Below, piece by piece: positions 17,590 to 56,389 of a DNA stretch of 64,000 bases. The stretch is from Myxococcaceae bacterium. GTDB taxonomy: Bacteria; Myxococcota; Myxococcia; Myxococcales; Myxococcaceae. Under the pieces are notes generated by a model. That model worked only from the letters and a program-made list of their open reading frames with translations. It did no database searches and was not told the origin of the DNA. Position 1 is the stretch's first letter. Every line of letters begins with the position of its first letter. Position numbers and translations under genes: made by a program. The stretch spans positions 192,001 through 256,000 of the forward strand of contig JAXLYB010000002.1 of the NCBI GenBank assembly GCA_046351675.1. The letters are read 5' to 3'.

Positions 17590-19965
17590 TCAGTGGGTCC
17601 AGGCGTCCGTCGCCAGGAAACCATCGATGGTCACGATGCCCGGCATCCCCGCCGTCGCGCCCGCACCCGCCCGCACGTCGATGCCCGCCGGCATGGCCAC
17701 CGTCACCGTGCTCGCGCTGTCCTGGCTCTCGATGAACACCCGCCCGCCGTTGCCGCCGAAGCCGGTCTGGAGGTCACCCGCGCCGCCCTTCGCCACCAGC
17801 ACGCCGCCGTTCACCACGTGCGTCGCCGTGAGGCTGAGCTCGCCACCGGGCGCCGGCTGCATCACCGGACCACCGCCCGCGACACCGCCCGTGACGTCGA
17901 GCTTGCCGTTGTTGGTCAGCGCCCCGAGCGCGCCCTGCAGCGAGACCGAGCCGCCCGAGCCACCGCCGAAGGTCACGCCCAACCCGCCGCGCGCGTCGGC
18001 GTCGCCGGTGTTGGTCGCGCCGTGCAGGCCGTACACGTTGATCGACCCGCCCACGCCACCCGTCAGGCCACGCCCACCCGACGCGCGCAGCACGCCGTTG
18101 TTGGTGGTGCGTTCCCACGTGCGCCGCGGAATCCAGACGCCCGACTGCGTCGTCAGGTTCAGCGAGCCGCCGTTCGCGCCGCTGCCGTTCACGCAGTCAC
18201 CGCCGTTGACCGACAGGTCGGCCTGGTTCACCACCGCGCCGCCGGGCAGTTCGGACCGGCTGCCCTGGTAGAAGTGGATGCTGCCGCCGCCGCCGGCCGA
18301 CGTCTGGCCTGCACCGCCGTTCGCCTCGAGGCCCGAGTAGCCGAGCAGGACGATCTCCGCGCCCACGCTGAGCCCCGACTCCGCCATGAACTGCACGCTG
18401 CCGCCGTTGCCGCCCGAGTCGCCCGCGCCCGCCGACGCGTTCACCGACACCGAGCTGATCAGCGAGCCCGCGCTGAGTCCGCCGTTGTACGTGCTCAGCC
18501 CAATCTGCACCACGGCCGTGCCGCCCGTGCCGCCGAACGAGCCGCTGCCGCCCGACACGTTCCACCGGCCGTCGACCACCGTCGCCGTCGTGCGGAGGTT
18601 GACGTAACCGCCGCTGCCGCCGGTGCAGCCGCCCTCGCAGGCGCCGAAGCTGCCGCTCAGGTTGCCGCCCTTCGCCGAGATGGCGACCGAGCTGTAGACC
18701 ATGCCGCCGCGCCCGAAGAGACCGCCCACCGTGTTGTCGAGCCGCACTTCGCCACCGGCACCGCCCGAGCCAGGCGTCACCGCGTCGTTGCCGTTGGCCT
18801 CGATGCTGCCCGCCGCGACCAGGTCGCCGCCGGCGGTGAGCGAGACCAGGCCGCCGCGGAAGCCGTCGTCGCCCGCGCCCGCGTTCGCGCGCACCACGCC
18901 ATTCATGAAGAGGTTGCGCCGCGCGTTGAGCGAGACCGACGCGCCGTTGGTGTTGGTGGTCGGCGTGCAGTCGATGGTGCCCTGGTGCACGAGGTCGCCG
19001 TCGGCGGCGTTCACGGTGAAGCTGATCGGCGCGGTGGCGCGCACGCTCGAGCCCGTCGCGAACACCACGTCGGCGCAGTTGAAGACCGCCGAGCCGTTGG
19101 CGCCGGTGATGACGACCGAGCCCGCGAAGCGGCAGCTGCGGTCGACGCCGACGAACGTGGGCGGCAGGGTCAGCGTGGCGCCCGCCGCGACGGTGAGGCT
19201 GGTCACGGTCGAGGGCGTCATGCCCGCGCCGCGCGCGATCGCGATGCCGCTGCCCGTCAGGTACGGCGTGCCCGCGTCGAGCGCGTCAGGCAGCTGCTCG
19301 AAGGTGAGCGTGGTGTTGCCGGTGATGTTGAGCGGCGTCGCGCCGAGCTCGGCCGCCGGCACCGTGGGCGCGGGGCGCGTCGCGTCGGCGTGCCCGGTGC
19401 GCCACACCTTGAGGTGACCGCCGTTGCTGCCGCGGTTGAAGCCGACCGTCACGCTGCCGCCCGAGCCGCCGTTGCGCAGCGAGCCCGCGCCGCCGTTGGC
19501 CTGCAGCACGTTGGTGCCCGCGTCGCCGCCGGGCGCCACGAGGCTGCCGAGCACCGCGCCGTCGTCGCCGTTGCAGACGATCTGCGTGTCGGTGACCTCG
19601 CTCGCCTCGAGCGCCTGGTTGCCCGCGATGCCGCCGTCGGCGCCGTTGTCGAGGCCGCTGGTGATGACGACGCCGCCGGTCGGGCAGCGCTGATCATCGT
19701 TCGGAATGGGCGCCTGCGTCACGAGCGACACCGCGCCGTTCGAGCCGTTGCCACCGTTCATGCCGTCGCCACCGTTGCTGCCGTTCGAGCCGTTGGTGCC
19801 GTTGGTGCCGTTGCAGATGACCTCCGTGGTCTGATCAGGAGAGATCAACCGCACGCCGCCCGCCGCGCACTCCGAGCCGGGGTCGATCTTCTCGACCGTG
19901 AACTGGTCCTTCCGGCAACCCGCAAACACCACCACCACCGCGACAGCCACGAGGGTCTTGTTCAT
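17590..19965 (-). CDS. large Gly/Asn/Thr-rich secreted lipoprotein, probably beta-helix adhesin-like (ATG at 19965; ORF-track start 20391 is an Arg-rich artefact)
   Basis: MNKTLVAVAVVVVFAGC lipobox, then NGTNGTNGSNGSNGGDGMNGGNGSNG and hundreds of residues of GxxGxxG-type repeats. Confidence 0.7.
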   Translation of the reverse strand: MNKTLVAVAVVVVFAGCRKDQFTVEKIDPGSECAAGGVRLISPDQTTEVICNGTNGTNGSNGSNGGDGMNGGNGSNGAVSLVTQAPIPNDDQRCPTGGVVITSGLDNGADGGIAGNQALEASEVTDTQIVCNGDDGAVLGSLVAPGGDAGTNVLQANGGAGSLRNGGSGGSVTVGFNRGSNGGHLKVWRTGHADATRPAPTVPAAELGATPLNITGNTTLTFEQLPDALDAGTPYLTGSGIAIARGAGMTPSTVTSLTVAAGATLTLPPTFVGVDRSCRFAGSVVITGANGSAVFNCADVVFATGSSVRATAPISFTVNAADGDLVHQGTIDCTPTTNTNGASVSLNARRNLFMNGVVRANAGAGDDGFRGGLVSLTAGGDLVAAGSIEANGNDAVTPGSGGAGGEVRLDNTVGGLFGRGGMVYSSVAISAKGGNLSGSFGACEGGCTGGSGGYVNLRTTATVVDGRWNVSGGSGSFGGTGGTAVVQIGLSTYNGGLSAGSLISSVSVNASAGAGDSGGNGGSVQFMAESGLSVGAEIVLLGYSGLEANGGAGQTSAGGGGSIHFYQGSRSELPGGAVVNQADLSVNGGDCVNGSGANGGSLNLTTQSGVWIPRRTWERTTNNGVLRASGGRGLTGGVGGSINVYGLHGATNTGDADARGGLGVTFGGGSGGSVSLQGALGALTNNGKLDVTGGVAGGGPVMQPAPGGELSLTATHVVNGGVLVAKGGAGDLQTGFGGNGGRVFIESQDSASTVTVAMPAGIDVRAGAGATAGMPGIVTIDGFLATDAWTH

Positions 19966-20060
19966 GGGCGGCGACTTGTCACGGGTGTGGGCCGCCTGTC
20001 CACGCGTCAGGCCGCTGCCGCGCGCGGCGTCGGGCGTCGCATGTTCGGGAGGCCGCCACC

Positions 20061-21221
20061 ATGCAACGCGCCGTTTCGATGGCGCTGGAGCTGTGGCGGT
20101 CGTGTCGCTGCGAGCAGCTGGCCCTGAGGCTCGAGCTCGCGACCGAACCCACCCCTGGCGCCGACATTCCCCACTTCGAAGCGCCGGCGTTCGCGCGCTG
20201 GTGGCTCGAGCGCTGCGCCGCGCGACGCTCGCGTGACGTGCCGCTGCTGGTGCGTTCGCTCGCGCCCGCCGCGTCACCGCTCTTCCTCTCGCAGCTCGAG
20301 GGGCTGGCCCGCTTTCGCGCCGACCCGCGCCTCGCCAACGGCCTGCGCGCCGCGCTCGAGCTGCACGCCGCGATGGACCTCGCCGCGCCACGCTTCCGCC
20401 CCCTGTGGCAGCGGGTCTTCAGCCTGCTCGCCGCGATGGGTGACCCGCGCACGCGCGGCTGGCTGCCGCAGCTGGTCGAGGCGCAGCGCCATTCCACGCC
20501 CGCGCACCGGCGCTGGCTGCAGTGGCAGGTCACGCGCGTCACCGGCGCGCTCCCGCTGTCGGTTCCGCCGAGGGAGCCGGTGCACCTCCCGGCGCCGCCG
20601 CCGCCACTCGCGGTGACGAGCCCCGAGGAGCGGCTGGTGTTGGCAGATCAACTGAGCGCCCGCGGCGATCCCCTCGGGGAATTCCTCGTGCTGCAGGCCG
20701 TCGAGGCCGACGCGCGCCTGGCGCCCGAGCAGTCGGCCCGGGTGCGCGCGCTGGTGCAGACCCACGGCCGGCGGTGGCTCGGCGCGCTGACGGTGGCGCT
20801 GCGGCCCGACGGCCTCCGCTTCGAGCGTGGCGCCGTCGCCGCGGGCACGCTGAGCGGCACGCACGCGCTGCGGCTCCACGGTGACCCGGCGTGGTCAGGC
20901 GTGCGCGAGCTCGACCTGCGCGCGATGCAACACACCGACGACGCCGCGCTGTGGCGCTTCCTCACGCACCCGGTGTTCGCGCGGCTCGAGGCGCTGCGCT
21001 CGGTGCCGCTGTCGTTGGCCGAGCCGCTGCGCCGCGGCCCGGTGCCGTTTCGCCTGCGGGTGCTCGGCTTCCTCGACGCGTTCTCCGCCGCCGAGCGCGT
21101 CAACCTGCTGCACGCCGAGCCGCTCGCGCACCTCGAGGTGGTCGAGTTCGCCGGCGGCTCTGACCGGTGGGAACGGCGCGGCGAGCAGTGGTCGCGGCGC
21201 AAGCACGGGAGCCAGGCATGA
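20061..21221 (+). CDS. hypothetical protein with TIGR02996-like 'repeat-companion' domain
   Basis: PEERLVLADQLSARGDPLGEFLVLQAVE matches the (Y/L)ADWLEERGDPRGEF(I/L)RLQ core of that family. Confidence 0.6.
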   Translation: MQRAVSMALELWRSCRCEQLALRLELATEPTPGADIPHFEAPAFARWWLERCAARRSRDVPLLVRSLAPAASPLFLSQLEGLARFRADPRLANGLRAALELHAAMDLAAPRFRPLWQRVFSLLAAMGDPRTRGWLPQLVEAQRHSTPAHRRWLQWQVTRVTGALPLSVPPREPVHLPAPPPPLAVTSPEERLVLADQLSARGDPLGEFLVLQAVEADARLAPEQSARVRALVQTHGRRWLGALTVALRPDGLRFERGAVAAGTLSGTHALRLHGDPAWSGVRELDLRAMQHTDDAALWRFLTHPVFARLEALRSVPLSLAEPLRRGPVPFRLRVLGFLDAFSAAERVNLLHAEPLAHLEVVEFAGGSDRWERRGEQWSRRKHGSQA

Positions 21222-21308: not shown

Positions 21309-22829
21309 TCAGGAAGGCCACGCCGCGCCGAACGCCTGCGAGCTCAAGCCGCGCGCCTCGAAGATGCTGCGCCACTGGTCGGGCGAGTACGCGTTGGCGA
21401 CGCCCGGGTACTTCTGCGCGAGTTCCTGCGCCCGGGCCGGGGCGACGTTGCCCGCGGGCAGCGCCGCGAAGTCGGCCTCGAACGCCTTGCGGGTGGTGGC
21501 CGGCACGCCCTTCTTGAGCACGGTCTGCACGAAGAAGCCGAACTCCTTGCCGTGCTCGTTCCAGTTCACGGTGCTGTTGGGCTTGCCCGCGAGCGTGTCG
21601 TTCACCGCGCCGAGCGTCGGCTTCCAGAAGTAGTCCGGAACGTCGTCGGTGTAGGTGGTCGGCAGGTTGGTCATCGTCTTGAGCTTCTCGTCGTCGGCCA
21701 TGTACGCGGTGAGCACCTTCCCGTTCGCGTCGCAGACGGCGTACATGTTCCAGCTCTTCGAGCTGCGGCCCGGATCGCCCTCGTGGTCGTCGCTGACCTC
21801 GACGCCGTAGGTGCCGACGATGTTGACCTGCTTGACGCTCGCGCCGCCGGTCACGCCGTCCTTCGTCGCCTGGTCGATGAGCTGCTTGGCGACCTCCGGC
21901 TTGAGCGTGGTGGTGGTGAGGTCGGAGCTGACGAAGGGCTGGTTCCAGACTTCCTTGTGGCCCTTCTTCTTGTCGTTGAACACGTCGGCCACGACGCCGC
22001 CGCCGTTGTTCATCAGGTACTGCTGCGTGCCCTTGAGGAGGTCGACCGCGCTCAGGTTGGAGTCGAAGAGCTGGTTGCCGTCGTTGACGGAGATCTTGTC
22101 AGCGACCGCCATCATCCAGTTGCCGAGGTCGGCGCGCGACATGAACTGGCCGCCCACCCACAGGCCGCGCTCGCCCACCGGGCCGGGCACGTCGACGAGC
22201 TTGTCGATCTCGGTCGACAGCGACGACCAGGTCCACGCGTGGCACTTGCCCCACCAGAAGTCGGCGTCGGGGTTGAAGAAGTCCTTCGAGTTCGCCATCG
22301 CCTCGAAGCCGTCGACGCGCACGCCAAACGCCTTCGCCGCGGCGTCGAGCGCCTGGCCGGGGGAGTTCTTCTGCGCCGCCGCGAGGTCCTCGGGCTTGAT
22401 GACGCTCGACGCGGGCACGCTCGAGCCGTGGCGGTTGCGCAGCGGCCCTTCCTTCGTGGCGTCGTAGCTGCGGGTGTACGCGGGCACGTTCGACTCGCCG
22501 TGCACCTTGCCGTCGCGGCCGAGGAACACCGTGTCGTCTTCGAAGCTCGCCTTGTTGGTGCCGTTGACCGCGCGAATCACCTCGGCGTTGGCCGGGGGCG
22601 TGGGCGGGGTGATGTCACCGAGGCCGAGGAACTTCTCGATCATCGTCTTCGCCGCGGGGTCGAGCTTGTCGGCGTTGCGCGAGAGCATCGCCTTGAGCTC
22701 GGCCTTCTCACCCTTGCTCACGCCGCCGTAATCCTTGGTGGCGTCGAGCATCAGCTTCGCCTCGTCGGCGGTGATCTTGGTGTCGGTGAGGAAGCGCTTC
22801 TCGAGGTTCCGCAGGCTGGTGATGCTCAT
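21309..22829 (-). CDS. lysine-rich hypothetical protein with a possible Cys-His active-site motif (WWGKCHAWTW)
   Basis: 506 aa with no signal peptide. Its K/D/N-rich composition is atypical for this Arg/Ala-rich proteome, but codon usage is native (AAG, GAC). The N-terminal 55 aa resemble those of the protein at 51120-51974. Confidence 0.7.
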   Translation of the reverse strand: MSITSLRNLEKRFLTDTKITADEAKLMLDATKDYGGVSKGEKAELKAMLSRNADKLDPAAKTMIEKFLGLGDITPPTPPANAEVIRAVNGTNKASFEDDTVFLGRDGKVHGESNVPAYTRSYDATKEGPLRNRHGSSVPASSVIKPEDLAAAQKNSPGQALDAAAKAFGVRVDGFEAMANSKDFFNPDADFWWGKCHAWTWSSLSTEIDKLVDVPGPVGERGLWVGGQFMSRADLGNWMMAVADKISVNDGNQLFDSNLSAVDLLKGTQQYLMNNGGGVVADVFNDKKKGHKEVWNQPFVSSDLTTTTLKPEVAKQLIDQATKDGVTGGASVKQVNIVGTYGVEVSDDHEGDPGRSSKSWNMYAVCDANGKVLTAYMADDEKLKTMTNLPTTYTDDVPDYFWKPTLGAVNDTLAGKPNSTVNWNEHGKEFGFFVQTVLKKGVPATTRKAFEADFAALPAGNVAPARAQELAQKYPGVANAYSPDQWRSIFEARGLSSQAFGAAWPS

Positions 22830-22896
22830 CGGTGTCTCCCAGGTTGAAGTGGAGCTTCTGATCAGTGAGGCAATCTGACGCGCTTCCCTAGCGCAG

Positions 22897-24543
22897 TCAT
22901 CGCTTCCCGCCCAGTCCCCGCAGCGCGTTCTGATACCGGCCCTGCGCGGGGTTCAACCGGCTGGCATGCCGGTAGGCCTCGATGGCCTCGTCCCGGCGGC
23001 TGAGCGAGAGCGCGAGGTCGGCACGGAAGGCCCACGCGTCTTCGCACTGCGGGTCGCGCGCGCACGCGTCGGCCAGCGCCTCGAGCGATTTCTCGGCGGC
23101 GAAGTCGGGGTTCAGCCGGAAGCGGGCCAGCGCCAACCACGCCAGGGTGCGGCCGGTCGGCTCGATGTCGGCGGCGTACTCGAAGTGTTCCACCGCGCTC
23201 TTCACCTGGCCCTGCTCGAGCCGCTTCTTGCCCTCGTCGAACTGCGACTTCGCGTCGAGCAGCTCGGTGCGAATCTTGAAGTGCTCCGCGGCGCGCGACG
23301 GGTCAGGCCCACCCTTCTTCTTCGCGAGCGCGTTTTCCCGCCGCTTGCGGTGCAGCGCGTGCTGCTCGGGCTCGACGAGGGCTCCGTAGGCGCGGGCGTA
23401 CGCGAGCAGCAGCTGCTCGGCCCGGTTGCGCGCGTCGGGGTGGTGGAACTTCGCCGGCGAGAGCGCGTTGGCCTTCGCGAGGAAGGCGGTGCTCAGCGAG
23501 GCGATGGGCGTCTCGGGCGTCACCGCGAGGAGGTCGAACGCGTCCTTGCTGCGGTACGCGAGGAACTCGGTCGCCAGCGCCGAGAGCAGCGCCTCGTCGT
23601 CGACCGGTTTGGGCGCGGCGACGGGTGGAGAGGCGGCGGGCGCGGGAATCGGCTCGACCGGGAGCTGCGTGAGCCCCGACGGACTCGAGCGCTTCGGCCG
23701 CGCGTCAGCCACCTTCGCGTCGTCGACCAACTCGAGCACGCACAGCGCGTAGAGCTTGCGGCGCAGGTCGTCGCGCTGGGTGTTCGGCAGCGAGAGCACC
23801 GTCGCCACCGTGGGCCGCTTCTTGAGCGCCTGCACCAGCCGCAGGTCCTTCGCGGGGAGCTTCAGCTCTTCGCTCACGTCGTCGACCAGCAGCGCCAGCA
23901 CCTGGTCGTCGGGCAGCTTGAAGTGCGCGTCGAGCAGCTCCACCGGCAGCTGCGCCGCGCCGAGGTACACCAGCTGCGCGGTGTTCATCTTGATGGGCGT
24001 CAGCACCTCGTCGAGGTCGACCAGCTTCCACTTCGCCTCGACCCAGCGAAACGCGTCGAGCAGGGTGTGCGCGAGGTTCTGCTGCAGCAGCTTGAAGAGC
24101 TCGAAGCTGTTGATCAGCTTCTTCTCGACCACCAGCAACTGGAGCGGCTTGCCCACCGCCGCGCTCTCGGCGTTCAGCGCGTGCAGCTGCTCGTCGGTGA
24201 GCTTGCCCTTCGCGACCAGCGCCTTGCCGAACGTCTCGTGGAGCAGGTTCGACTCGCAGCCCACCGGCACGCCGTTCTCGAAGTGCACCCGCTTCTCGAG
24301 GTTGCGCAGCTTCAGCTCGAGCGTGCACGAGCGTTCCTCGCTCAGCAGCGCGTGGAGGAGCAGCGGCAGCGGCGTCTCGTGCAGCGTTCCACTCTTCGCG
24401 CGAACGACCTCGCGCCGTGGGGTGAACACGGGCCGAAGTGTACCCCCGAAGCGCGGAGAACCAGCGTTCACGCCACGGCCTGCAGCACCCTGTCGCACCC
24501 CACCCATCATTTTGCGCAGTGGGCAAACTTGCACAGTGGGCAC
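22897..24543 (-). CDS. DUF4388 domain protein with C-terminal TPR repeats (start uncertain, possibly at MMGG 24507)
   Basis: The TLHETPLPLLLHALLSEERSCTLELK segment is typical of DUF4388. The C-terminal helical repeats are TPR-like. Confidence 0.65.
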   Translation of the reverse strand: MPTVQVCPLRKMMGGVRQGAAGRGVNAGSPRFGGTLRPVFTPRREVVRAKSGTLHETPLPLLLHALLSEERSCTLELKLRNLEKRVHFENGVPVGCESNLLHETFGKALVAKGKLTDEQLHALNAESAAVGKPLQLLVVEKKLINSFELFKLLQQNLAHTLLDAFRWVEAKWKLVDLDEVLTPIKMNTAQLVYLGAAQLPVELLDAHFKLPDDQVLALLVDDVSEELKLPAKDLRLVQALKKRPTVATVLSLPNTQRDDLRRKLYALCVLELVDDAKVADARPKRSSPSGLTQLPVEPIPAPAASPPVAAPKPVDDEALLSALATEFLAYRSKDAFDLLAVTPETPIASLSTAFLAKANALSPAKFHHPDARNRAEQLLLAYARAYGALVEPEQHALHRKRRENALAKKKGGPDPSRAAEHFKIRTELLDAKSQFDEGKKRLEQGQVKSAVEHFEYAADIEPTGRTLAWLALARFRLNPDFAAEKSLEALADACARDPQCEDAWAFRADLALSLSRRDEAIEAYRHASRLNPAQGRYQNALRGLGGKR

Positions 24544-51119: not shown

Positions 51120-51974
51120 TCACGTCTCGACGGCGCCGATGAGGATGCCGGCGACCTTCCCGTCGGAGGTGCGACCCAGCACCATGCGCCCGTACAGGCC
51201 CTGATCAGACGCGACCCCACCGTGGTCGTCCTTCGGGCCGATGTTGATCACCTGCAAGTCCGTGAGGTTGTCCTTCATCAGCGTGGTGATGCCCTTCCAC
51301 GCCGCGCTCGACTTCGGGTCCTCGTCGTCGGCCAGGCCGTTGATGAAGCTCGTGGCGTCACGCGGCGAATACGTCTCGCCCGCGAAGTCGGCGGGGAAGT
51401 TGCCGTCGTCCTTGAACAGGTTCTTCAAGGGGCCGGCGAAGGCCGTCATCGCGTTGGGGCCGTTCAGGTGGCTGGCCGCCGCGATGTCGCCGGTGACGAA
51501 CACCGGGCTGTAGTCGCTCTCGGACACGTAGTTCGCGTCCTTCGCGAGCTTGTTGATGGCGGTGCCGAGCTCCTTGCTGCCCAGCTTGCCGCCGCCGTCG
51601 ACGTCGCTGCCACCCGCGGCCTTGAGCGCCTTCGCGAGCGCCACCGCGTTCTTGCCGGTGAGCGACATGCGCGAAATCTCGTCCTTCGAGAGCCCGTTCT
51701 GGTTCAGGTCGTACTTCGCGACCATGTGCTCCTTCGCGTACGCGACCGCCTTGTTCACGTCTTTCGCGGTCACCTGCGCGCCGGCCTTGAAGTCACGGCG
51801 GTCGATGAACTTGAAGAAGATGTCGGCGAGCGCGCGCTGTTCCTTCGGCAACGCGTTGAGCGCGGCCTTCATCTCGGCGCGGCTGGTGCGGCCGTCGGTG
51901 CCACCGGCGGTGATGATGGACTTCGCGGCGAGGGCGAGCGCGGCGTTGACGTCGGCTTTGGCGATGCGGGGCAT
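51120..51974 (-). CDS. lysine-rich hypothetical protein with a canonical EF-hand loop
   Basis: YDLNQNGLSKDEI fits DxNxNGxIxxxE. The N-terminal 55 aa are similar to those of the protein at 21309-22829. No signal peptide. Confidence 0.7.
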   Translation of the reverse strand: MPRIAKADVNAALALAAKSIITAGGTDGRTSRAEMKAALNALPKEQRALADIFFKFIDRRDFKAGAQVTAKDVNKAVAYAKEHMVAKYDLNQNGLSKDEISRMSLTGKNAVALAKALKAAGGSDVDGGGKLGSKELGTAINKLAKDANYVSESDYSPVFVTGDIAAASHLNGPNAMTAFAGPLKNLFKDDGNFPADFAGETYSPRDATSFINGLADDEDPKSSAAWKGITTLMKDNLTDLQVINIGPKDDHGGVASDQGLYGRMVLGRTSDGKVAGILIGAVET

Positions 51975-52058: not shown

Positions 52059-55000
52059 TCAGCGAATGGTGACGACCACGCGGTAGGCGAACTGCGAGTT
52101 GGCGCCGCTGGTCGAGAAGCCCTTCACCTGCACGTACCAGGTCACGCTCGTGGTGCCGGTGTTCTTCACGCCGGTGTGGAGCGGGCTGGTGCCGGTGCCA
52201 TCGACGAGCGAGCAGTTGCCGCGGCCGTCGTCGTCGCTGGTGGCCAGCGACGTGCCGGTGGGCCCGAGAATCGAGATGACGCTGTCGACGCCGAGGCTCT
52301 CGCAGGTCTCGGTGTTGCCCTCGATGATTTCAGCGCGCACCGCCTTGCCGGCCGGCACGGTGATGGCCCACACGTCGACGTCGGTCGCCAACGAGTGGTC
52401 GCCGCCGCCGAAGCCCTCGGGGAAGGTGAGCAGGCGCGTCTCGGCGGTGGCGGTGGTGTCGTTGACGCCCGAGATGCCGACGCCCTCGGTCTCGGTGCCG
52501 CGCGGCGCCTCGATGGCCGCCTCGAGGAAGTAGCGGGTGAGGGTCGCGTCGTTCCCGCTCTCCTCGACCTGGATGTAATAGGTGCCGACCGGCAGCAGGG
52601 TGACGATGGCGCTGCAGCTCGAGATGCCCGAGGTGGTGTCGGTGAGCATCGCCATGCCGTTGCTGGTGAGCAGGCGCAGCGTGGTGGTGCCGGTCTGGCA
52701 ATCGCCCGCCGAGGTGAAGGTCTCGAAGCGCATCACCGTCGCCGCGGCCACCGACACGCGGAACACGTCGACGTCGCCCACCGTGCCGATGGCGCCGCGG
52801 AGCATCGTGGTGCCGGTGATCTGCACCGTCGAGCTGTCGGCCTGCTGGCGCGTGTTGTTCGGCTCGATCTCATCGACGGCGTTGATGCGGCACATGTTGT
52901 TGCAGCCGTCGGTGTTGATCATGTTGCCGTCGTCGCATTCCTCGACCGCCGGCGTGAGGATGCCGTCGCCGCACACGATGGGCGTGAAGCGCACCTCGAG
53001 GCCGTAGCCGGTGATGAGGTCGGTGTCGCCGTAGTCCATCACCTGCACGTAGACCGTCGCGCCCGGAGCCAGCGAGAGGCTCGCCGTCGAGCAGCGATCG
53101 AGCGAGCCGTTGCGGTCGTCGTTCGACACCAGCACCGCGCGCGTCGCGTCGTACACCGTCATGCCGGTGTCGATGCTCGTGCCGCACGCCACGCCCTGGC
53201 CGTAGCCACTCGCGCGGTTCCACGTGTCGAGCTGCAGCGTCTGCGGCACCGCGGTGTCGTTGGTGATGGCGAACACGTCTTCGTCGCCGGCGGGCGAGAT
53301 GGCCGCGAGCACCCCCTGCGTGCCGTTCGACGCGCGCACCGCGCCGTTGGCGTTGGCGCGGGTGATGGCGCTCGCGTCGACGTCGTTGCCCACGATGCCG
53401 CTGCCGCCGGTCGAGGGCGTGCCGTCTTCGTTCGGCTCGGTCTCGGTGGGCTCGGTGCGGCAGCCCGCGCTGCACCCGTCGAGGCTGCGGGTGTTGGCGT
53501 CGTCACACTGCTCGTTGCCGTCGATGAACCCGTCGCCGCAGGTCTGGGTGCGCATCACGCACATCGAGGGCATGGTGCCGGTGCAGCTCCAGCCGACCTC
53601 CACGGTGCAGGTCGCCGAGCAGCCGTCGCCCGGCGTGGTGTTGCCCTGGTCGCAGCCCTCGGTGCTCGCCTTCACGCCGTCGCCGCAGGTGGTGGTGCAC
53701 GTCGAGGGCATGCCGGTGCAGGTGAAGCCGGTCTCCACGGTGCAGGTCGCCGAGCAGCCGTCGCCCGGCGTGGTGTTGCCCTGGTCGCAGGTCTCGCCGT
53801 TCAAGATGCGCCCGTCGCCGCAGATGCCGCGGCACACCGAGGGGTTGGTGCCGGTGCACGCGTAGCCGCTCTCGATGGTGCAGGTCGCCGAGCAGCCGTC
53901 GTTGTTCGCCAGGTTGCCGTCGTCGCACGCCTCGGTCGCGGCCTTCGCGCCGTCGCCGCAGCGAATGGTGCACATCGAGGGCGCGCCGGTGCACGAGTAG
54001 CCCGCCTCGACCTGGCACGTCGCGGAGCAGCCGTCGTTGGGCAACAGGTTGCCGTCGTCGCAGGTCTCGCGCGCGCCGGTCAGGCCGTCGCCACACACCG
54101 CGGTGCACACCGACGGAGAGCCGGTGCACGTCGAGCCCGCCTCGACCACGCACGCGCTCGAGCAGCCGTCGCCGTTGGCGGTGTTGCCGTCGTCGCACGC
54201 CTCGTTGCCCTGTTTCGTCCCGTCACCGCAGTTGCCGCTGCACACCGAGGGCATGCCGCTGCACGCGTAGCCCGCCTCGATGGCGCAGGTGGTGGAGCAG
54301 CCGTCGCCCGCCGCCACGTTGCCGTCGTCGCAGCGCTCGGCGCCGCTGATCAACCCGTCGCCGCAGCGCGTGACGCAGCGCGAGGGCACGCCCGCGCACT
54401 GGTAGCCGGTCTCGACGGTGCACGTCGCCGAGCAGCCGTCGCCCGCGGTGGTCCCCATGTCGTCGCAGCCCTCGGCCCCCACGGGAATGCCGTCGCCGCA
54501 CGTGGTGGTGCAGGTCGAGGGCGTGCCGGTGCAGGAGAAGCCGAGCTCCTTGAGGCAGTTGGCCGAGCAGCCGTCACCGGCGGTGCGGTTGCCGTCGTCG
54601 CAGTCTTCCGACGGGTTCTGCATGCCGTCGCCGCACGAGCTGGTGCACTGGCTGGGCATCATGGTGCACGCGTAGCCGGGCTCGACGCGGCAGCCCGCGG
54701 AGCAGCCATCGCCGCCCATCGCGTTGCCGTCGTCACAGGTCTCGGTGCCGGCGACCACGCCGTTGCCGCAGCGGGTGACGGTGCAGTTGGTGTCGCAGCC
54801 GTCGCCGTTGGTGGCGTTGCCGTCGTCGCACGCCTCGGTGCCGGTCTTCACGCCGTTGCCGCAGCCGGTGGGCCGGCAGGTGCCGCCCGCGCCGTCGTCG
54901 CAGCCGTCGTCGTTGGTGTGGTTGCCGTCGTCGCACGCCTCGCCCATCTGCTGCACGCCGTCGCCGCACGCGCCCGCGGCGCAGCGGTTCATCGCGCACA

Positions 55001-55409
55001 GGCCGCTCTGGCAGTCGGCAGGCACCTGGCAGCCTCCGTTGGTGGCGCACTGGCGGGTGGGCGCGCAGCTGCCGCCGCAGTCGACGCCGGTCTCGTCGCC
55101 GTTGCGCATGCCGTCGGTGCACGAGCCCGCCGCGACGCTGCAGGTGTGGGTGCCGAGGTTGCAGACGTTGGGCGCGCAGTCGAGGTTCGACAGGCACTGC
55201 ACGCACGCGCCCTGGCCGTCACAGGTGCCGGTGTTGCACCGCGTGCCCAGCGAGGTCGGCACGTGCCGCGCGACGCCGCTGCTGCTGCACACGTCGTCGG
55301 TGCACGGGTTGCCGTCGTCGAGCGCGTCGCAGGTCGGCTTGCCGCACGAAGAAGCGAGGGCGAGGCCGAGCGCGAGGCTCGCAGCGAGAGAAGCGCGGGA
55401 GCTGATCAT
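52059..55409 (-). CDS. giant lipoprotein built from 'myxococcus cysteine-rich repeat' units plus C-terminal pre-peptidase (PPC)-like beta domains (ATG at 55409)
   Basis: Lipobox LALASSCG. More than 15 CGDGxxxxxExCDDGNxxxGDGCSxxC units. The C-terminal 450 aa are beta-rich PPC-like domains. Confidence 0.8.
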   Translation of the reverse strand: MISSRASLAASLALGLALASSCGKPTCDALDDGNPCTDDVCSSSGVARHVPTSLGTRCNTGTCDGQGACVQCLSNLDCAPNVCNLGTHTCSVAAGSCTDGMRNGDETGVDCGGSCAPTRQCATNGGCQVPADCQSGLCAMNRCAAGACGDGVQQMGEACDDGNHTNDDGCDDGAGGTCRPTGCGNGVKTGTEACDDGNATNGDGCDTNCTVTRCGNGVVAGTETCDDGNAMGGDGCSAGCRVEPGYACTMMPSQCTSSCGDGMQNPSEDCDDGNRTAGDGCSANCLKELGFSCTGTPSTCTTTCGDGIPVGAEGCDDMGTTAGDGCSATCTVETGYQCAGVPSRCVTRCGDGLISGAERCDDGNVAAGDGCSTTCAIEAGYACSGMPSVCSGNCGDGTKQGNEACDDGNTANGDGCSSACVVEAGSTCTGSPSVCTAVCGDGLTGARETCDDGNLLPNDGCSATCQVEAGYSCTGAPSMCTIRCGDGAKAATEACDDGNLANNDGCSATCTIESGYACTGTNPSVCRGICGDGRILNGETCDQGNTTPGDGCSATCTVETGFTCTGMPSTCTTTCGDGVKASTEGCDQGNTTPGDGCSATCTVEVGWSCTGTMPSMCVMRTQTCGDGFIDGNEQCDDANTRSLDGCSAGCRTEPTETEPNEDGTPSTGGSGIVGNDVDASAITRANANGAVRASNGTQGVLAAISPAGDEDVFAITNDTAVPQTLQLDTWNRASGYGQGVACGTSIDTGMTVYDATRAVLVSNDDRNGSLDRCSTASLSLAPGATVYVQVMDYGDTDLITGYGLEVRFTPIVCGDGILTPAVEECDDGNMINTDGCNNMCRINAVDEIEPNNTRQQADSSTVQITGTTMLRGAIGTVGDVDVFRVSVAAATVMRFETFTSAGDCQTGTTTLRLLTSNGMAMLTDTTSGISSCSAIVTLLPVGTYYIQVEESGNDATLTRYFLEAAIEAPRGTETEGVGISGVNDTTATAETRLLTFPEGFGGGDHSLATDVDVWAITVPAGKAVRAEIIEGNTETCESLGVDSVISILGPTGTSLATSDDDGRGNCSLVDGTGTSPLHTGVKNTGTTSVTWYVQVKGFSTSGANSQFAYRVVVTIR

Positions 55410-55558
55410 TTCGGGCGCAGGCTCTACCCCGGGGGGCGGCGGCCGGTCCACCGGGGGACCGCTCGTGCTTCCACCCTCTTCGGGCTTGGCCGGGCGCGCG
55501 CCTCGTGCCATGTCCGCCCCACTTCGCCGTTCGCTCGCGTCACCGAGGGGAAATCCAC

Positions 55559-56389
55559 ATGCCGACCCGCCTGCCGTATGCCTCGACCGTCGCGCTGTTC
55601 GCCGCGCTCGCCTTCGCGTCCTTCACGGGCTGCCAGGAAGACATGACCGCCGAGAAGGCCCGGTGGGACGGCATGCAGAAGGAATGGGCGACCAAGCTCG
55701 AGGCGACGAAGAAGGGCCACGCCGAGCTCGCCGAGAAGCTCAAGGCCGTCGCCGCGCCCGAGGGTGAAGGAGAGCTGGTGGCCGCGCGCAACGCGCTCAA
55801 CGAGCAGCTGACCGCCGGCGAGAAGGCCATCACCGAGGCCGAGAAGGCCGTGGGCGAGGCGAAGGCCAACATCGAGGGCCTCATCGCCAAGGGCAAGAAG
55901 GTGCCGGTCGAGGTGGCGCTGGGCAACGTGAAGAACTCCGTCGACGGCCACGTGATGCGCGCCTCGTCGCTGGTGAACGCCGGCAACGAGCAGCTCGAAC
56001 AGCTCGACCGCAAGATGCAGACCCTGAAGGCCGAGGGTGAAGCGGCGAAGTCGCGCACCAGCGCGTGGGCCGGCGAGGTGAAGAAGAAGGGCGGCATGCT
56101 CGCCATCGACGACATCGTCTTCCAGGGCGAGGGCCTCGTGGCCGACAAGTCGCGCGTCGCGCTGACCAGCCTGGTGGCGACGCTCAAGACGTGCGCCGAG
56201 GTGCGGGTCGAGGTCGCGGTGACGGCGGTGAGCGACGTGGCCGACCTGGGCAGCAAGCGCGCCGAGGCGCTCAAGGGCTACCTGACGGGCAAGGGCGTCG
56301 ACGCGGCGGTGCTCGCGAAGGTGTCGGGCACGTCGGCGAAGGAAGGCGACGAGAAGGTCGCGGTCAACATCACCACGCCCTGCAAGTGA
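55559..56389 (+). CDS. OmpA-family lipoprotein with a coiled-coil spacer
   Basis: Lipobox FASFTGC. C-terminal OmpA-like block GEGLVADKSRVALTSLVATLKTC...KRAEALKGYL. Confidence 0.7.
   Translation: MPTRLPYASTVALFAALAFASFTGCQEDMTAEKARWDGMQKEWATKLEATKKGHAELAEKLKAVAAPEGEGELVAARNALNEQLTAGEKAITEAEKAVGEAKANIEGLIAKGKKVPVEVALGNVKNSVDGHVMRASSLVNAGNEQLEQLDRKMQTLKAEGEAAKSRTSAWAGEVKKKGGMLAIDDIVFQGEGLVADKSRVALTSLVATLKTCAEVRVEVAVTAVSDVADLGSKRAEALKGYLTGKGVDAAVLAKVSGTSAKEGDEKVAVNITTPCK

Follow-up and report, generated by a model that had tools for sequence, protein, structure and literature searches.

A lysine-rich hypothetical protein of Myxococcota as a divergent relative of the Phytophthora GP42 transglutaminase with a mobile N-terminal module

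Among the genes of a 64,000-nucleotide stretch of Myxococcaceae DNA (contig JAXLYB010000002.1 of assembly GCA_046351675.1, positions 192,001 to 256,000; hereafter the window), the one at 21309-22829 on the minus strand, which encodes a lysine-rich protein of 506 amino acids that we call P1, raises the question of what kind of protein this is and what it might do. A preliminary description had singled out the P1 motif WWGKCHAWTW as reminiscent of a papain/transglutaminase-like Cys-His core, and had further supposed that P1 and a second lysine-rich protein, the 284-aa product (P2) of the open reading frame (ORF) at 51120-51974, also on the minus strand, carry the same N-terminal module in the manner of secreted effectors or polymorphic toxins. 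We report that P1 is, close to certainly, a distant bacterial homologue of the GP42 transglutaminase of Phytophthora, in homology as well as in fold, and that its family is an unannotated subfamily of a known kind of enzyme, distinct in its architecture. The reading that we favour, and hold to be probable though some way from secure, is that P1 is a GP42-type transglutaminase-fold cysteine acyl-transferase which cross-links or deamidates protein glutamines, with flanking domains for substrate recruitment or regulation. Throughout, P-numbers of the form P0358 denote relatives found in profile and homology searches, and L-numbers denote loci.

The kinship with GP42 emerges both from predicted structure and from a chain of intermediate sequences. 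The AlphaFold2 (AF2) model of P1, built on 31 family members, is confident (predicted local distance difference test, pLDDT, 91.8; predicted template modelling score, pTM, 0.80), and a Foldseek search with this model returned the GP42 structure 3tw5_A at E 3.5e-8 as its sole match at E <= 0.001. The structure prediction that the preliminary description had suggested for the Cys/His region leads in this way to the GP42 transglutaminase, with its papain-superfamily fold and its own 'CH' motif, and supports the proposed Cys-His core. On the side of sequence, the weakest matches of the close-family profile of P1 (A1), namely P0314, P0329, P0340 and P0358, exceed the gathering threshold of the Pfam model PF16683 ('Transglutaminase elicitor'). 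That model is matched by 19 of the 36 members of a bridging alignment made of the query plus intermediates (A3), with a best E of 1.7e-31, and the A3 profile in turn aligns to the sequence of 3tw5 along 218 profile positions (E 8.9e-24), bringing the motifs W.G.(C/S)HAW, VWNQP and PDFLW into line between the two.

The catalytic core of GP42 type occupies approximately residues 81-405 of P1 (21615..22589), and the motif WWGKCHAWTW (residues 192-201; 22227..22256), which aligns to TWFGIsHAWS in 3tw5, can be read from its sequence as the GP42-type 'CH' catalytic motif. In a 2023 classification of papain-like enzymes the GP42 site is described as 'highly uncommon', the His having left the canonical strand for a position directly after the Cys (the 'CH' motif), where its partner is either an Asn of strand beta-2 or an Asp on a helix outside the core (PMC10318531). 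Candidates for each of these residues are found in P1: the putative nucleophile Cys196, which starts the helix 196-202, and His197 (codons 22239-22244); Asn296, a candidate partner of His197 in the VWNQP strand (residues 294-298; 21936..21950), which aligns to the VWNQP of GP42; and Asp162 (22344..22346), a conserved residue on the helix 157-167 and a candidate third member of the catalytic site, which may be equivalent to the non-core-helix Asp of GP42.

Conservation of these residues was counted in 182 relatives with a length of 380 aa or more. Cys196 and Trp199 are each found in 170 of them, Asp162 in 164, Asn296 in 160 and His197 in 123, and in both A1 and A3 the residues Gly194, Cys196 and Trp199 are invariant. 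The preliminary description had let its Cys-His reading stand or fall with the conservation of these two residues in homologues, and the 'CH' pair is in fact retained by 101 of the 120 best homologues. The alternatives at residue 197 among the 182 relatives include Asp (21), Tyr (11), Ala (6) and, three times each, Glu, Gln and Asn; 8 have a gap there. Each of the 12 sequences in which residue 197 is Tyr or Phe has a Phe at position 296, as no sequence with His197 does, and from this co-variation of His197 and Asn296 we infer that their side chains are neighbours, as they are in GP42. The full Cys-His-Asn-Asp set is present in 115 of the 182 sequences, P1 and its clade included. A separate clade, to which P0104, P0108 and P0113 belong, has Cys-Tyr for Cys-His and always Phe for the Asn of VWNQP; either its active site is re-wired or the branch has lost activity.

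Several results weigh against the assignment. P1 itself has no match in Pfam, NCBIfam or PADLOC, and PF16683 does not match it even at E <= 1, which we attribute to a sequence too divergent for the Pfam model; the A1 profile, used alone, finds nothing among PDB sequences, and the membership of P1 in the GP42 family is accordingly argued through intermediates and predicted structure. Furthermore, His197 gives way to another residue (Asp, Tyr, Ala, Glu, Gln or Asn) in about 29% of relatives, so that it is not needed throughout the family. GP42 is secreted, as are most PF16683-like relatives, whereas P1 has no signal peptide, and transamidation and hydrolysis (by a protease, an amidase or a deamidase) fit the data alike.

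The ORF of P1 is a real and conserved gene, complete at 21309..22829. It is present in the ORF listing, the identical protein is encoded in a Myxococcaceae metagenome-assembled genome (MAG), more than 120 full-length homologues exist, and the ATG is preceded 6-7 nt upstream by the Shine-Dalgarno sequence GGGAG; the stop codon lies at 21309-21311. From stop to stop the frame spans 21312-22952, and because 22829 is the first start codon within it, the N-terminus cannot be extended upstream and no hidden signal peptide is possible. Neither a sigma-70-like promoter nor an intrinsic terminator was detected near the gene, a result that is uninformative in this organism.

In composition P1 and P2 are much as first described, that is, rich in lysine (K), aspartate (D) and asparagine (N). 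P1 contains 7.9% K and 3.2% arginine (R), P2 8.8% and 3.5%, and K/(K+R) is 0.71 for both against a median of 0.29 for the 41 coding-like ORFs of the window; D+N content is 13.6-14.4% in the two proteins. The earlier statement that both lack signal peptides also stands, inspection of the sequences revealing no hydrophobic N-terminus in either (the hydrophobicity heuristic was run on the P1 family only). The GC content at third codon positions (GC3), 0.97 for P1 and 0.95 for P2, implies that both genes are native, with strong codon bias, rather than foreign DNA; a horizontal or plasmid origin of the P1 gene was ruled out on this GC3 value and on a plasmid search without a match.

The homologues of P1, more than 120 in number and with E down to 1e-279, all come from Myxococcota MAGs or metagenomes, and every one of those listed (at least 120) is either a 'hypothetical protein' or nameless. 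Pfam domains are absent from nearly all of the 120 listed, two of which carry Somatomedin_B alone, and among the closely aligned homologues no Pfam or NCBIfam model was matched. The family is a small one, since a profile search run exhaustively over 1.84 billion representatives picks up no more than 156 proteins at E <= 0.001. Scanning one genome for each GTDB species gave 36 loci, each in an uncultured Myxococcota MAG, with two paralogues in each of two genomes. One of these is the Archangium sp. MAG JASGKS010000001.1 (9.4 Mb), in which the paralogues at L010 and L023, 81% and 49% identical to P1, lie approximately 1 Mb apart; the other is La3_concoct.158.

By the hydrophobicity heuristic, 110 of the 120 best homologues lack a hydrophobic N-terminal stretch, lipoprotein signals being present in ten distant ones, while signal peptides are present in most PF16683-like relatives, from which it follows that the signal-less state is a derived feature of the P1 clade. 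Two distant relatives, P0277 and P0278, carry PG_binding_1 (E 1e-15) in place of the N-terminal module, and in the lipoproteins P0114 and P0115 there is a Cys-rich domain resembling Somatomedin B; the domains of these four proteins hint at cell-envelope targets.

The core of P1 is flanked by two further domains. The N-terminal module (residues 1-70; 22620..22829) is a mobile domain of about 67 aa with four helices (2-16, 21-31, 39-51 and 58-68 in the AF2 model), which resembles a pair of EF-hands without a canonical Ca2+ loop, and it is joined to the core by a flexible Pro-rich linker, GDITPPTPPA (residues 71-80; 22590..22619), with pLDDT below 50 at residues 72-78 and a length that varies in the alignment. 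The C-terminal helical domain (approximately residues 406-506; 21312..21614; AF2 helices within 407-489) has the pattern GVP...FE...YPGVANAYSP.QW...RGL...FGA and is kept in bacterial relatives, including those that match PF16683; the aligned part of 3tw5 stops short of it. P0096, a protein of 582 aa, has three tandem copies of the final ~50 residues of this domain (YP.VA.AYS..QW...F...GL.A.AFGA), and this triplication suggests that they form an independent small binding unit.

A wider search for the N-terminal module, as the preliminary description had proposed, was rewarding, and the module of P1 was found on GP42-type, Tgl-type and tandem-repeat proteins. It precedes a GP42-type core in P0358, stands as two copies N-terminal to a Tgl-type core (PF20085, E 7.6e-55) in P0367, and is present in two to four tandem copies in P0324, P0326, P0330, P0338, P0354, P0355 and P0373. 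Of the last group, P0354, P0355, P0373 and P0326 are stand-alone proteins of three or four copies, separated by Pro-rich P(M/L)YG(M/V)P linkers and without a Pfam match; the transglutaminase-like enzymes could associate with such tandem proteins or use them as substrates. An alignment of the module (A4) found no match at E <= 0.001 in a set of 5.8 billion proteins, and these architectures are consequently known solely from the profile search of the 1.84 billion representatives.

Since the module sits on two structurally unrelated cross-linkers, of GP42 and Tgl type, and also in stand-alone tandem arrays, one may speculate that this ~70-residue unit is a dedicated transglutaminase accessory domain which marks an unrecognised cross-linking system in uncultured Myxococcota. 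It would be part of the same speculation, to be taken jointly with it, that the signal-less GP42-type enzyme recognises the module or is restrained by it, and that the tandem-repeat proteins are substrates or scaffolds, for instance in spore or matrix assembly. We put this idea forward tentatively and consider it rather doubtful as a whole.

Homology, fold, motif conservation and co-variation are observed for P1, and upon them we build a proposal for its chemistry, for the role of Asp162 and of the flanking domains, and for its cellular location and substrates. P1 would be a three-part enzyme, the central ~325 residues of which adopt a divergent GP42 ('transglutaminase elicitor') fold and act as an acyl-transferase of the papain superfamily. 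Cys196 would serve as the nucleophile and the adjacent His197 as the general base, the latter presumably held in place by the VWNQP-strand residue Asn296 and probably also by Asp162 on the neighbouring helix, as in GP42. By analogy, the enzyme would form a thioester with the side chain of a protein-bound glutamine and then pass the acyl group either to the amine of a lysine, giving an isopeptide cross-link, or to water, giving deamidation. The N-terminal four-helix module and the C-terminal helical domain, which is specific to the bacterial proteins, are most likely the parts that recruit substrates or regulate the enzyme.

The same fold would also suit a hydrolase, whether a cysteine protease, an amidase acting on peptidoglycan or protein, or a glutamine deamidase, in which water resolves the thioester, and the PG_binding_1 domain that replaces the N-terminal module in P0277 and P0278 is as much at home on a cell-wall amidase as on a cross-linker. 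However, GP42, which alone of the proteins with this fold has been characterised, is described in the literature as a transglutaminase, and the occurrence of the N-terminal module on the Tgl-type protein-glutamine gamma-glutamyltransferase domain of P0367 ties the accessory domain to cross-linkers; we therefore regard a pure hydrolase as unlikely, if well worth keeping in mind.

A further reading has P1 as a pseudoenzyme, that is, a structural or binding protein which keeps the GP42 fold without catalysis. The replacement of His197 in so many relatives, together with the clade in which Tyr and Phe take the places of His197 and Asn296, lends this some weight, as does the fact that activity is predicted for P1 from sequence and model alone. 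Against it, P1 and its close clade keep the full Cys-His-Asn-Asp set, and even distant relatives show no change at Cys196, Gly194 or Trp199, which would not be expected of a site that has fallen out of use. A non-catalytic P1 seems to us improbable.

The supposed link to P2 bears on the last of the alternatives. P2 (51120..51974) consists of an EF-hand-like N-terminal module (residues 1-122) and a NuiA-like C-terminal domain, and is not part of the system of P1. Pfam NuiA (PF07924) scores 19.1 bits on P2 (E 0.0016) against a gathering threshold of 22.1, and the same model is found in most of the listed homologues of P2, which are 41-67% identical to it and some of which are named 'nuclease A inhibitor family protein'; on these sequence matches we class P2 as a probable NuiA-family (nuclease-inhibitor-like) protein. 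Its predicted helices are 6-23, 32-39, 44-58, 70-87, 97-101 and 105-122, and its EF-hand-like loop, YDLNQNGLSKDE (residues 89-99), falls inside the conserved N-terminal module and not, as had been described, in the C-terminal part, which is the NuiA-like one. A match of P2 to the XopAW Ca-binding effector is weak (E 0.0024, far below the cutoff). Residues 1-122 form a separate module, approximately 60-80% identical among proteins with at least three unrelated kinds of C-terminus; the kinds seen are the NuiA-like one, a class of ~240 aa with the ending ...GAGDNTYGA...DGD and a class of ~265-285 aa that contains PPR.DEGFSEPDE.

No comparison supports the earlier proposal that P1 and P2 have alignable N-termini. 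BLASTP of P1 against P2 gives no N-terminal alignment, its best segment being an unrelated one at E 0.65, and hhalign of the N-terminal family profiles gives probabilities of 13% and 6%. A deeper hhalign, with 166 instances of the P1 module and about 115 N-termini of the P2 family, reaches 26.7%, the matched region of P2 then being residues 47-107 instead of the 7-40 originally aligned. A hidden Markov model (HMM) of the P1 module, built from the 166 instances and run on the six-frame translation of the window, finds P1 only (E 1.3e-27), with P2 at 5.7 bits and E 0.79. BLASTP, the two hhalign runs and HMMs searched against the window and the P2 family led us to reject a module common to both proteins. 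The two N-termini share just an EF-hand-like helix-loop-helix layout, seen in the models of both, and a short motif, 'DG.I..E' or, more narrowly written, 'DG+I..E'; no Pfam EF-hand model is matched by either protein. They are two different modules, and the picture of a module on divergent cargo applies to each of them separately and fails for the pair.

The surroundings of the gene are equally uninstructive as to a partner. P1 is a stand-alone gene, the neighbours of which differ across six distant loci, and at the P1 loci examined there is no immunity-like gene, secretion context or conserved neighbour. The upstream DUF4388/TPR gene (22897-24543), which had been put forward as a possible partner, was searched for at 45 loci, 44 of which carry a P1 relative (L007 and L015 being one genomic place); it adjoins P1 only in the contigs with an identical P1 and at the 81%-identical orthologue, and was rejected as a partner on this synteny.

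The preliminary view of P1 as a secreted effector or polymorphic toxin, with a common N-terminal trafficking module on different cargo and perhaps with DUF4388 as partner, can draw on the mobility of the P1 module across different C-terminal domains and tandem arrays, on the lipoprotein or Sec signals of ten distant family members and of further relatives, which indicate that the fold can work outside the cell, and on the compositional oddity that P1 and P2 have in common, but it is very improbable given N-termini without significant similarity, a P2 cargo that is an inhibitor-like NuiA-type domain and not a toxin, a P1 with no signal peptide and no room for one upstream, the want of a conserved or immunity-like neighbour at the loci examined, a DUF4388 gene that is adjacent only at the closest orthologue, and PADLOC defence-system and plasmid searches that were empty. 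Polymorphic toxins typically have variable C-terminal tips. The full-length homologues of P1 grade smoothly from 81% to about 36% identity within a single phylum, and a second copy is present in some genomes only.

Three other ORFs of the window deserve mention for their composition. A third strongly lysine-rich one, at 55505-56389 on the plus strand (K 9.9%, R 4.1%), is unrelated to P1 and P2 and encodes a predicted lipoprotein (…FASFTGCQED) with a coiled-coil-like middle. Near the lysine-rich genes, on the minus strand, are two large proteins of odd composition: one of 1150 aa (52059-55511) with 8.3% Cys and repeated C..DDGN...DGCS units, and one of 933 aa (17590-20391) with 19.5% Gly and GGxGG-type repeats.

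For a family of over 120 proteins that go unnamed in public databases, the work supplies a fold, an active site and a chemistry that can be tested, and it widens the range of the GP42 transglutaminase fold to the Myxococcota, to a new domain architecture and to proteins with no secretion signal. The co-variation of His197 and Asn296 is independent evolutionary support for the unusual layout of the GP42 active site. If P1 is active, it would offer a new microbial transglutaminase scaffold and a handle on protein cross-linking in an uncultured group of social, spore-forming bacteria. The finding reveals no new principle; it turns a family of 'hypothetical proteins' into a testable enzyme.

Comparison with known systems places P1 more precisely. 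P2, to begin with the protein that stands apart, differs from the classical NuiA family (PF07924, PDB 1J57) in its additional 122-aa N-terminal module, EF-hand-like and highly conserved, which has no counterpart in classical NuiA. In papain-like cysteine proteases and in Transglut_core (PF01841) the canonical His lies on a beta-strand, whereas P1 shares with GP42 a His displaced to the residue that follows the Cys, and P1 has no Pfam match to any family of the Peptidase_CA clan. The spore-coat transglutaminase Tgl of Bacillus (PF20085, PDB 4P8I) is a protein cross-linker of the papain superfamily, as is proposed for P1, and the Tgl-type protein P0367 bears two copies of the N-terminal module of P1. 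Tgl has no signal peptide and acts from within the cell that makes it, and myxobacteria also sporulate, which is an analogy and nothing further. The catalytic domain of Tgl belongs to a different family from that of P1, with a different active-site layout, in which Glu is used rather than His (PMC10318531). The core of P1 has neither a sequence match nor a top structural match to Tgl.

The closest known system is GP42 of Phytophthora sojae (3TW5; PF16683), along with its homologues from oomycetes and bacteria. GP42 is reportedly a secreted cell-wall glycoprotein, and its fold is said to have been described, in the structure paper of 2011, from oomycetes and marine Vibrio. P1 departs from it in being only 15-18% identical to 3TW5 and missed by the Pfam model, in lacking the signal peptide that most PF16683-like relatives possess, in belonging to a family confined to uncultured Myxococcota and in having no Pep-13 elicitor context of the oomycete kind, a point that was not examined in detail. 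To the GP42 plan it adds the 70-aa four-helix N-terminal module and, beyond the aligned part of 3TW5, the C-terminal helical domain of about 100 aa. The two are nevertheless joined by sequence, via intermediates that exceed the Pfam threshold; the motifs W-x-G-x-C-H-A-W, VWNQP and PD(F/Y)(L/F)W align between them, and the His directly after the nucleophilic Cys, the hallmark of GP42, is found in P1 as well.

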